A DNA stretch of 64,000 nt, taken from positions 166,767 to 230,766 of the forward strand of contig CAWHXS010000012.1 in the NCBI GenBank assembly GCA_963833365.1, written 5' to 3'. The notes below the pieces were generated by a model, which saw only the letters and a program-made list of their open reading frames with translations, made no database searches and was not told the origin of the DNA. Source of the stretch: an uncultured Gemmatimonadales bacterium. Its GTDB lineage: Bacteria; Gemmatimonadota; Gemmatimonadetes; Gemmatimonadales; GWC2-71-9. The stretch's first letter is position 1, and the number at the start of each line of letters is the position of its first letter. The translations under genes were made by a program, and so were the position numbers. Shown piece after piece: positions 41,506-42,716 of the stretch.

Positions 41506-42716
41506 AAGTCTCCTCGGCGGTGGTAACGCTCGAGCCAGTCCCGGCTCCAGCGATCAAAAGTCTGGTTCAAAATCGTCTCCCGGGCCAGCTCTCCAAGCCG
41601 GATCAGGAACCGGATGTTGTGGATCGACACCAGACGCAATCCCAACATCTCCTCCGCCATGAACAGATGGCGCAGGTATCCACGCGAGAACCGAACGCAG
41701 GTCTCGCAGTCACACGCGGGGTCCAGCGGCTGGTCCGACAATCTGAGCCCGGCGGACCGGATGTTCACCTTACCCAGGCTGGTCCAGGCGCTGCCGTGGC
41801 GCCCATTTCGGGTCGCGGCAACACAGTCGAACAGGTCCACTCCCCGGGCGATTCCCTCCAGCAGATCGTCGGGAAAACCCACTCCCATAAGATAACGGGG
41901 GACGGCGGCGGGCAGGACCGGCGCGAGCTCTTCCAAGACGCGGTGCATGACCGGCTTGGGCTCGCCTACCGAGAGGCCGCCGACCGCAATTCCGGTCCAG
42001 GGACCGCGGGCCAGGGTGCCTTCCAGCGAGCGCATTCTCAGGTCGGCATGGGTGCCGCCCTGAATGATGGGCCAGAGGGTCTGGGTGGGGGTCGTACGGT
42101 CGATGGTCGATGGTCGATGGTCGATCATGTCCGCTGATTGCGCCTTTGACCATTGACCATCGACTATCGACTCACGACCGGCCACGAGCTCCGCGTGTCG
42201 GCGACGACAGCGGTCCAGCCACCGGAGCGTCCGCTCCATGCCCTCTTCAGCGCTGGCGAAGTCGGACTTGGCCGGGACCACGTGATCGAACGCCATCGCG
42301 ATGTCGGCGCCCAGCGCCCACTGGATGTCCATCGACGATTCGGGTGTGATGGTCCGCAAACCGCCGTCGATGTGACTTTGAAATTCGACGCCCTCCTCCT
42401 CTATGGTGCGAAGGCCTTCAAGTGAAAACACCTGAAAGCCGCCCGAGTCGGTGAGCATGGGTCCGGGCCAGGTAGAGAATCGGTGCAGCCCCCCCAGTGC
42501 CTGGACCACCGCTTCACCCGGACGCAGGTGCAGATGGTAGGTGTTGCCCAAGATGATCTGAGCACCCGCGCGCTCGACTTCGGCCGGGTGAAGCCCGCGC
42601 ACAGTCCCATGAGTCCCCACCGGCATGAACGCCGGCGTGCGCACTGTCCCATGCGGCAGCGTGAGCGTGCCGGCACGGGCGAGGCCGTGGGTGCTTTCGA
42701 GTTTGAATTCGAACAT
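41502..42716 (-). CDS. tgt: tRNA-guanine transglycosylase (carries a 30-codon repeat-derived insertion)
   Basis: [31 protein letters not shown] and CDCETC zinc motifs. 404 aa compared with about 375 aa for E. coli Tgt. Confidence 0.9.
42090..42179. repeat. 90-nt heptamer-arm palindrome (GGTCGAT / GACCATC family) inside the tgt coding sequence
   Basis: GGTCGTAC then four GGTCGAT units (42090-42125), a 22-nt loop, then GACCATT GACCATC GACTATC GACTCAC GACC (42148-42179). It encodes [30 protein letters not shown] in frame. Confidence 0.85.

Follow-up and report, generated by a model that had tools for sequence, protein, structure and literature searches.

Long simple-sequence repeats of bacteria (Mrazek 2007, as cited in PMC4692102 and PMC4679880) include heptamer repeats, which are reported to be unusually prone to slippage and over-represented in many bacteria (PMC4692102, PMC4679880). 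In Xanthomonas, arrays of the heptamer GGGAATC form 70-75 convergent, opposite-strand pairs per genome, each a potential stem-loop; the positions of the arrays are conserved between related genomes as copy number changes, and the arrays are under-represented in open reading frames (ORFs) (Rehm et al. 2015, PMC4692102). Template switching is a published route both to perfect stems and to multi-base compensatory change within them (PMC8794818). Here we describe a hairpin with arms of 7-nucleotide (nt) tandem units that lies in frame inside tgt, the gene for tRNA guanosine(34) transglycosylase, in an uncultured soil Gemmatimonadales bacterium. The DNA analyzed is a stretch of 64,000 nt from contig CAWHXS010000012.1 (assembly GCA_963833365.1, positions 166,767 to 230,766), hereafter the window, and all coordinates count from its first letter. 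The site that the hairpin occupies in tgt is a long-lived, order-wide hotspot, not the mark of a single transposon hit.

On the plus strand the hairpin takes up 90 nt, 42090-42179. The sequence GGTCGTAC at 42090 is followed by four perfect GGTCGAT units at 42098-42125 (period 7, 4.0 copies and 100% matches according to Tandem Repeats Finder), a loop of 22 nt at 42126-42147, CATGTCCGCTGATTGCGCCTTT, and then GACCATT GACCATC GACTATC GACTCAC GACC at 42148-42179, letter for letter as an initial annotation, made from the sequence alone, had described it. The stretch at 42098-42125 has the three or more head-to-tail copies of a 7-nt unit that define a long simple-sequence repeat, and the hairpin as a whole has the two nearby arrays of complementary units, on opposite strands, that define a paired inverted array. 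Complementarity between the arms is 83% over 29 nt, or 92% over 24 nt. On the transcript strand the hairpin folds at -53.7 kcal/mol (z-score, z = -5.5), a stability equaled by none of 200 dinucleotide shuffles. In the coding direction, on the minus strand, the G-rich arm comes first (42148..42179, GGTCGTG AGTCGAT AGTCGAT GGTCAAT GGTC, encoding approximately G180-S190), then the loop (approximately K191-M197), and last the C-rich arm (42090..42125, four ATCGACC units plus GTACGACC, approximately I198-T209). The loop has no second match in the window at up to six mismatches, and no 8-mer in common with the loops of other hairpins there. A two-unit probe, GGTCGATGGTCGAT, allowed up to two mismatches, has eight matches in the window against 1.07 expected, all of them either in this hairpin or in an intergenic array at 37956-37983, which bears out the earlier assignment of both to one unit family. 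Contigs from three independent soil metagenome runs, covering 42001-42270, 41900-42311, and 41900-42400, cross the hairpin with no gaps and with two or three substitutions each. The hairpin is therefore real DNA rather than an assembly artifact.

The host gene, tgt (41502..42716, minus strand), is an intact ORF in the ORF list and encodes a protein of 404 residues. The protein scores 453.8 bits to the equivalog model TIGR00430, for which the cutoff is 306.75, and matches Tgt structures in PDB at 1e-109; the profile and PDB matches alike come in two pieces, split by the insert. Codon 180 starts at position 42179, and the 90 nt make up exactly codons 180-209 (G180-T209), free of stops, just as had been claimed. 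Aligned with E. coli Tgt (PDB 10fb) by HMMER, the protein shows a break at query residues 176/212 against E. coli residues 176/181, from which it follows that some 30 extra residues are located exactly at this break, between the conserved helix and the LWPIIQGG motif, where the initial annotation had put them. An AlphaFold model made with 36 homologs has a mean predicted local distance difference test score (pLDDT) of 70.8 and, in Foldseek, template modeling (TM) scores of 0.87-0.88 to Z. mobilis TGT structures. Residues 186-208 of the model, between a helix at 153-186 and a strand at 213-215 whose LWPIIQGG region runs to Q219-G220-G221, have pLDDT below 50. The insert is thus predicted to be a disordered surface loop; a surface loop is what had been expected. 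Residues invariant in the alignment are D90, D144, Q219, G246-G247-L248, C335, C337, C340, and H366, which we take to have the catalytic and zinc-binding roles assigned from Z. mobilis TGT. The active site of a TIM-barrel enzyme is found at the C-terminal ends of its strands. Judged by the known TGT fold, the insert would sit on the barrel face opposite the active site and, being at a barrel strand's N-terminal end, distant from that site, should leave the enzyme working.

To survey this site, 120 Tgt homologs were aligned, and the DNA between the anchors LRWLxRCxxRH and QTLWPIxQGG was then extracted from the genomes of 80 GTDB species and from 80 metagenome contigs; 155 Gemmatimonadales loci (numbered here with the prefix L) had both anchors. 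The site has 7-11 residues in 39 of the 155, the shortest form, AEL-S-DGR-Q, being about as long as in E. coli, and 16-58 residues, up to about 50 of them extra, in 96. At the DNA level most inserts are hairpins with tandem-repeat arms, in which the unit of each arm is the reverse complement of the unit of the other. The units are spelled differently from one species to another (GGACGGAC, GGACGGAA, GTCGGTAA, GGCGGACG, GCGGGTAA, GGGGAAT, GGGGACAGT, and others) and fall into at least 15 families. A repeat period of 8 fits best in 62 loci, one of 7 in 13, and one of 9 in five; the heptamer period of the window hairpin is thus not general, and octamers predominate at this site. Folding is better than shuffled sequence at z < -2 for 38 of 55 distinct long inserts, and in 27 of the 55 the dominant units of the two halves are reverse complements of each other with at most one mismatch. 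When the relatives are ordered by flank identity (clustering by the unweighted pair group method with arithmetic mean, an order that is only approximate), occupied and unoccupied alleles are interspersed throughout. Within a 7-kb neighborhood, available with enough flank from 68 genomes, the tgt site holds 33 arrays, more than any spacer; about 15 are in the ruvB-queA spacer, which is occupied by arrays in 12 of 68 related loci, and about 10 are in the queA-tgt spacer. Occupation across the order by at least 15 different units with periods of 7, 8, and 9, together with remnants in close relatives, argues for an old hotspot with rapid turnover in place.

Representatives of all Tgt clusters at 50% identity normally have 5-12 residues at this loop, and long inserts occur in only a few unrelated lineages, so that the 30-residue segment is lineage-specific. 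Two of the exceptions, L161 (48% GC, gene at 58-1341) and L162 (59% GC, gene at 1501-2763), come from unrelated bacteria with about 46% Tgt protein identity; their inserts, of 96 and 273 nt, are palindromes resembling repetitive extragenic palindromic (REP) sequences, such as CCTCTCC..GGAGAGG and CCCCCCTTTTTCAAAGGGGGC. Because of these, it appears that the Tgt loop accepts palindromic DNA repeatedly across bacteria. Within the order, a clade of four loci (L025, L029, L033, and L036) has at about 3540-3660 of each locus a simple hairpin, CCCCCTCTCC-loop-GGAGAGGGGG, that lacks tandem-repeat arms, has the C-rich side first, and encodes peptides such as PPLRQAERGG. Even minimal alleles, such as CTG TCC GAC GGT CGG CAG, are small imperfect palindromes, and the GACGG core of this one resembles the commonest octamer family, which suggests, although it does not prove, that such a palindrome serves as a local seed for arrays. 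The pattern that minimal alleles follow is CTG-NCC-GAC-GGN-CGG-CAG.

Comparison with close relatives shows how quickly the site changes. Between the window and the loci L081 and L082 the flanking DNA is 91-95% identical and the homologous insert only 59-61%. All three have the outermost unit pair GGTCGTG/CACGACC; the inner units are GGTCGTG and CAAGACC in L081 and L082, against GGTCGAT and ATCGACC in the window, so that a two-base change is present on both arms and in several units. L002, with 97% identity in the flanking protein, retains only a remnant, and L001, with 95%, has no insert at all, in keeping with the lineage-specificity just described, yet carries heptamer arrays in its own spacers. 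In L001 tgt (3001-4125) the site reads GCG GGA GAG GCG GAA, which resembles the CGGGAGA family of the hairpin at 61809 and the first arm of a hairpin in rsmB, both described below; even alleles that look empty may therefore be remnants of earlier arrays. In L083 (86%) what is left, ACCATCGACCAG, equals one unit of the second arm of the window. L044 has a G-rich arm alone (GCAGCGGG three times), L049, at 96% flank identity, has mostly the complementary C-rich arm, and further remnants are found in L100, L143, and L137. Strains sampled by the metagenomes differ as well: in one, from run X24, the counterpart of the 118 nt at 42095-42214 of the window is only 109 nt long, and another, from run X6, diverges at the edge of the element (42084) into GGTCTTG, GGTCATG, and GGTCGTG units. 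The closest pairs of occupied and empty sites show neither target-site duplications nor terminal inverted repeats distinct from the arrays, a test whose power is limited where the empty sites may themselves be remnants. Read from these alleles, the pattern is one of apparent birth and death at a fixed site, by expansion, arm-to-arm copying, and deletion, and inserts of this kind could serve as fast strain markers.

Turnover of this kind bears directly on whether the insert is translated. The frame between the anchors is kept, with no stop codon between them, in every one of about 159 tgt loci checked, and the inserts in these loci range from 0 to about 50 extra codons, with nearly every length represented. 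If the insert were removed from RNA, or were irrelevant, two-thirds of the lengths would be expected to break the frame; because none does, the insert appears to be read by ribosomes. No clean skip of the segment was seen in metagenome contigs. The metatranscriptome runs contained only relatives of 90-95% identity, whose contigs end at the insert boundary. As a part of tgt the insert is evidently transcribed and, to judge from conservation of the frame, apparently translated in frame as a low-complexity, disordered loop of 30 residues.

The tgt hairpin has many counterparts. The window, 65% GC, is full of tandem arrays of 7-nt and some of 9-nt units, in at least six unit families, and at least ten of the arrays have a complementary partner at a distance of 20-80 nt, with which they form repeat-armed hairpins: 6490-6624, 13106-13175, 14638-14740, 24049-24135, 37468-37570, 42097-42180 (that of tgt), 42730-42850, 43888-43979, 61809-61902, and 63565-63709. 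By a simple gene call based on codon usage, nearly all of these sit in spacers just 3' of genes. A classification of some arrays as deep inside long ORFs proved unreliable and was set aside, spurious ORFs being common at 65% GC and most of the cases being in fact the ruvB-queA spacer. Units vary by locus, with GTCAGCC, GGTACTA, CGGGAGA, and CCCACTA among the recurring families of the window; no conserved loop or core was found among the window hairpins, whose loops share no 8-mer, and an Rfam 15 scan of the whole window returned no match at gathering score. The array that shares the unit family of the tgt hairpin, GGTCAAT GGTCGAT GGTCGAT GGTCAGT, runs into four copies of GGTCTTG (37956..38011), the complement of which forms part of the second arm in L081 and L082. 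A hairpin of TAGTACC and GGTACTA arms lies directly upstream of tgt in the queA-tgt spacer (42730..42850), and one of GTAGTGG and CCCACAA arms in the ruvB-queA spacer (43888..43979). The cleanest intergenic member, CGGGAGA in 4.7 copies paired with CGTCTCC, has 27-nt arms that are 100% complementary and lies between convergent genes (61809..61902). At 63565-63709 a hairpin with TGGGTAG and CCCCACT arms has a second array, CTCCCGT in 9.7 copies, in its loop, which shows that arrays can be nested or composite.

Two regularities link the tgt inserts to the other arrays of the same genomes. First, the unit in tgt tends to recur elsewhere in its own genome: L030 has GGGGAAT at three loci in a 7-kb stretch, and the window has GGTCGAT again at 37956; matches to the tgt unit number eight in about 230 kb of own-genome comparisons versus four in about 3.8 Mb of cross-genome comparisons, and the repeat period in tgt usually equals that of other arrays in that genome. 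Second, the hairpins have a strongly preferred polarity: 42 of the 55 tgt inserts lead with the G-rich arm and two with the C-rich arm, and among other inverted pairs, from the window and the flanks of L001-L080, the counts are 13 and two. Since a palindrome reads the same on both strands, this polarity is intrinsic to the way they arise or are maintained, and G-first order is what would be expected if a nascent G-rich array folds back and is copied.

The initial annotation proposed a search for in-frame hairpins in other coding sequences, and the window yields two more hairpins within ORFs, one in rsmB and one in the leader of a PBP4-like gene. The first, with arms of repeats of about 9 nt, lies at 37468..37570 on the minus strand in the RsmB linker, where it immediately follows the NusB-like domain. 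In the window, rsmB (36606-37961, minus strand) has its frame broken at the hairpin and again 420 nt downstream. Short-read contigs from runs X1 and X3 lack two nucleotides, at 37535/37537, and those from X3 lack one more at 37113; once these three single-base insertions or deletions (indels) are corrected, the hairpin is in frame and RsmB is an intact protein of 450 residues. In rsmB, therefore, the window has single-base indels that are either errors or strain differences, two of the three inside the repeat hairpin, and the idea that the hairpin had turned rsmB into a pseudogene was rejected on the evidence of the short-read contigs, which lack the frameshifts. The linker is 19-41 residues long in 120 homologs, with array-like inserts only in the clade of the window and a few others. 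We considered whether the linker might be an equal hotspot and rejected this, its occupancy being far below that of the tgt site, which by this comparison is exceptional. The second hairpin (14638..14740, minus strand) falls within the putative N-terminal leader encoded by a Peptidase_S13 (PBP4-like) gene at 13186-14946 and has 9-mer arms, GGCGGACAR four times and CTGTCCGYC. The G-rich arm encodes EADKADRADGAD and the C-rich arm a hydrophobic stretch, ATALSVLIALSVV, resembling a signal peptide's hydrophobic core. Elsewhere, an ORF at 39268-40866 (minus strand) starts like methionyl-tRNA formyltransferase, continues with an Arg/Gly-rich stretch, and then enters a segment like some other enzyme (..LHAITDRAVLELEDL..); this composite may represent a further frameshift or a fusion in the assembly.

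The explanation we favor, and consider probable, is that the tgt hairpin belongs to the abundant class of long simple-sequence-repeat hairpins of its genome, is tolerated and translated in a permissive loop of Tgt, and is rewritten there by slippage, template switching, or gene conversion. The class consists of paired inverted tandem arrays with units of 7-9 nt, the C-rich array coming after the G-rich one to which it is complementary, and occupies many of the intergenic spacers in Gemmatimonadales genomes. The steps we infer from the patterns described above are as follows. Replication slippage would add and remove units, and a variant unit would spread along one arm. The reverse complement of this variant would then be written into the other arm, whether by template switching, by fold-back synthesis, or by gene conversion from arrays in the same genome. 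Deletions between or within arms would leave single arms or short remnants. Selection would act only as a filter, keeping those versions in which the total length is a multiple of three and the units are free of stops; the hairpin itself probably has no function in tgt. Several points weigh against this account. No gain or loss has been caught with its exact breakpoints, and slippage and template switching are read from the patterns among alleles. The case for translation draws on frame conservation, the RNA runs containing only relatives at 90-95%, and the AlphaFold model behind the predicted loop is of moderate quality. The presence of one unit at several loci of one genome would also fit an element that copies itself between loci. 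Finally, occupancy at tgt is above that of the neighboring spacers and of the rsmB linker, so that tolerance alone is not a full explanation, and targeting or selection could contribute.

Should copying between loci be what happens, the element might be a non-autonomous mobile one, resembling MITEs (miniature transposable elements with inverted repeats) or Rickettsia palindromic elements (RPEs), with a transposase encoded elsewhere that prefers existing hairpins or this loop, the repetitive arms being incidental. The recurrence of the tgt unit at other loci of its own genome would be explained, and so would contigs in the same metagenomes that match both arms, though not the loop, within unrelated flanks. 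Nested arrays such as the one inside the loop of the 63565 hairpin, and the different palindromes found in the Tgt loop in the clade of L025 and in L161 and L162, as if elements had landed there repeatedly, would be accommodated too. Against it, the hairpins have no conserved core, no 8-mer shared between loops, and, in the occupied/empty comparisons, no distinct terminal inverted repeats and no target-site duplication; their units form a near-continuum of variants with periods from 7 to 9; outer units are common to relatives whose inner units differ; and one-armed or decayed forms are common. We regard this reading as unlikely. The initial annotation had left the choice open, in that the elements might be, or have been, mobile or might arise de novo within genes: the idea of a discrete inserted element is not supported, and the evidence comes closer to de novo origin.

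A bolder reading, quite unlikely in our estimate, is that Gemmatimonadales have an active palindrome-building process, independent of sequence and of fixed polarity, in which a G-rich array of 7-9-nt units would be made first and its complement copied back, with units homogenized genome-wide and existing hairpins preferentially acted on or re-seeded, including those in essential genes such as tgt. If true, this would be a class of self-propagating repeats without fixed sequence, distinct from REP sequences, MITEs, and CRISPR, and would steadily supply proteins with new disordered segments.

Selection for an RNA or DNA structure within tgt, whether as an RNase site, as a translational pause between the barrel halves, or as a signal for the downstream yajC-sec genes, with the peptide as a by-product, we hold to be very unlikely. 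Arm complementarity is kept between species despite sequence change, the tgt site is the most heavily occupied in its neighborhood, and about 60% of species keep something there, all of which a selected structure would explain; yet some 40% have no insert, among them the relative with 95% identical flanks, and 17 of the 55 long inserts fold no better than shuffles at z < -2. Loops, lengths, and units appear unconstrained, the same architecture occurs in ordinary spacers, and Rfam has no match in the whole window. The loop in the transcript has no UGU and hence does not mimic the substrate of Tgt; on the same ground the notion that the hairpin imitates a tRNA anticodon stem-loop bound by Tgt was rejected. 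In true contingency loci both frame states are common among genomes. A phase-variation switch, in which gain or loss of one 7- or 8-nt unit would shift the frame and turn tgt off or on, is conceivable in that such units are not multiples of three and array lengths differ between strains, but with no out-of-frame allele among about 159 assembled loci it is extremely improbable, although contigs could miss rare off variants within populations. An assembly or binning artifact has virtually no likelihood even though the window has single-base indel errors elsewhere, in rsmB, given the gap-free contigs from three independent runs and the homologous inserts in many independent assemblies.

These observations mean that simple-repeat hairpins, and not classical mobile elements alone, can add translated segments to a conserved enzyme, and that the segment added to Tgt can be rewritten repeatedly without destroying the gene. 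With more than 50 natural variants at one site, tgt is a good system in which to test what keeps the arms complementary (slippage, template switching, or gene conversion versus selection) and what sets the G-first order; thanks to the order-wide hotspot, the coordinated changes of the two arms, and the polarity bias, direct tests can be made of how hairpins and new protein segments originate. A practical consequence is that such inserts split profile matches, as in the two-piece match of Tgt.

RPEs are likewise palindromic, inserted in frame into unrelated housekeeping genes, translated, and found at positions that the fold tolerates (PMC10969869). The resemblance proposed in the initial annotation holds for this in-frame behavior, the tgt hairpin being an in-frame palindrome at a fold-compatible position of a housekeeping ORF. 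It does not extend to family membership: RPEs form families of about 150 bp with a conserved consensus and peptide, whereas the Gemmatimonadales hairpins lack a consensus and have simple tandem repeats for arms and unrelated loops, the unit families at the tgt site number at least 15, and other loci match the arms only. Because RPEs are consensus families, the hairpin cannot be counted among them. REP sequences, the paired REPIN forms, and MITEs such as ERIC, Correia, and Nezha are alike in being short hairpin repeats, abundant after genes and occasionally intragenic (PMC2229807, PMC2759123, PMC3733652). Those families have fixed sequences with a conserved head or terminal inverted repeats, often with target duplications and a cognate transposase. 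The tgt copy, intragenic and 90 nt long, has no GTAG or CGTC head and is not the 20-40-bp extragenic palindrome of REP and REPIN, and, with the limited power already noted for the occupied/empty comparisons, these revealed none of the terminal repeats, conserved body, and target duplications of MITEs. Template-switch hairpin mutations (Monttinen and Loytynoja 2022, PMC8794818) produce reverse-complement copies in one step, much like the pattern that separates the window from L081 and L082, but that work covers RNA genes and short stems, not tandem-repeat arms within a protein-coding gene.

The closest published architecture is that of the Xanthomonas GGGAATC heptamer arrays. These, and the cyanobacterial heptanucleotide short tandemly repeated repetitive (STRR) sequences, are similar to the arrays described here in having tandem 7-nt units, mostly in spacers near gene ends; with the Xanthomonas arrays the likeness goes further, to the same paired architecture and, here too, to conserved spacer positions. 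Our search of the literature found no description of such arrays in Gemmatimonadota. Xanthomonas arrays have one unit, with a G-tract and G-quadruplex potential, whereas those described here comprise many families with periods of 7, 8, and 9, and GGTCGAT has no G-tract. Xanthomonas arrays are under-represented in ORFs, whereas here one array lies in frame in a conserved enzyme and persists across an order. What is new here is the order-wide hotspot in tgt, occupied by repeat hairpins that are spelled differently from species to species.

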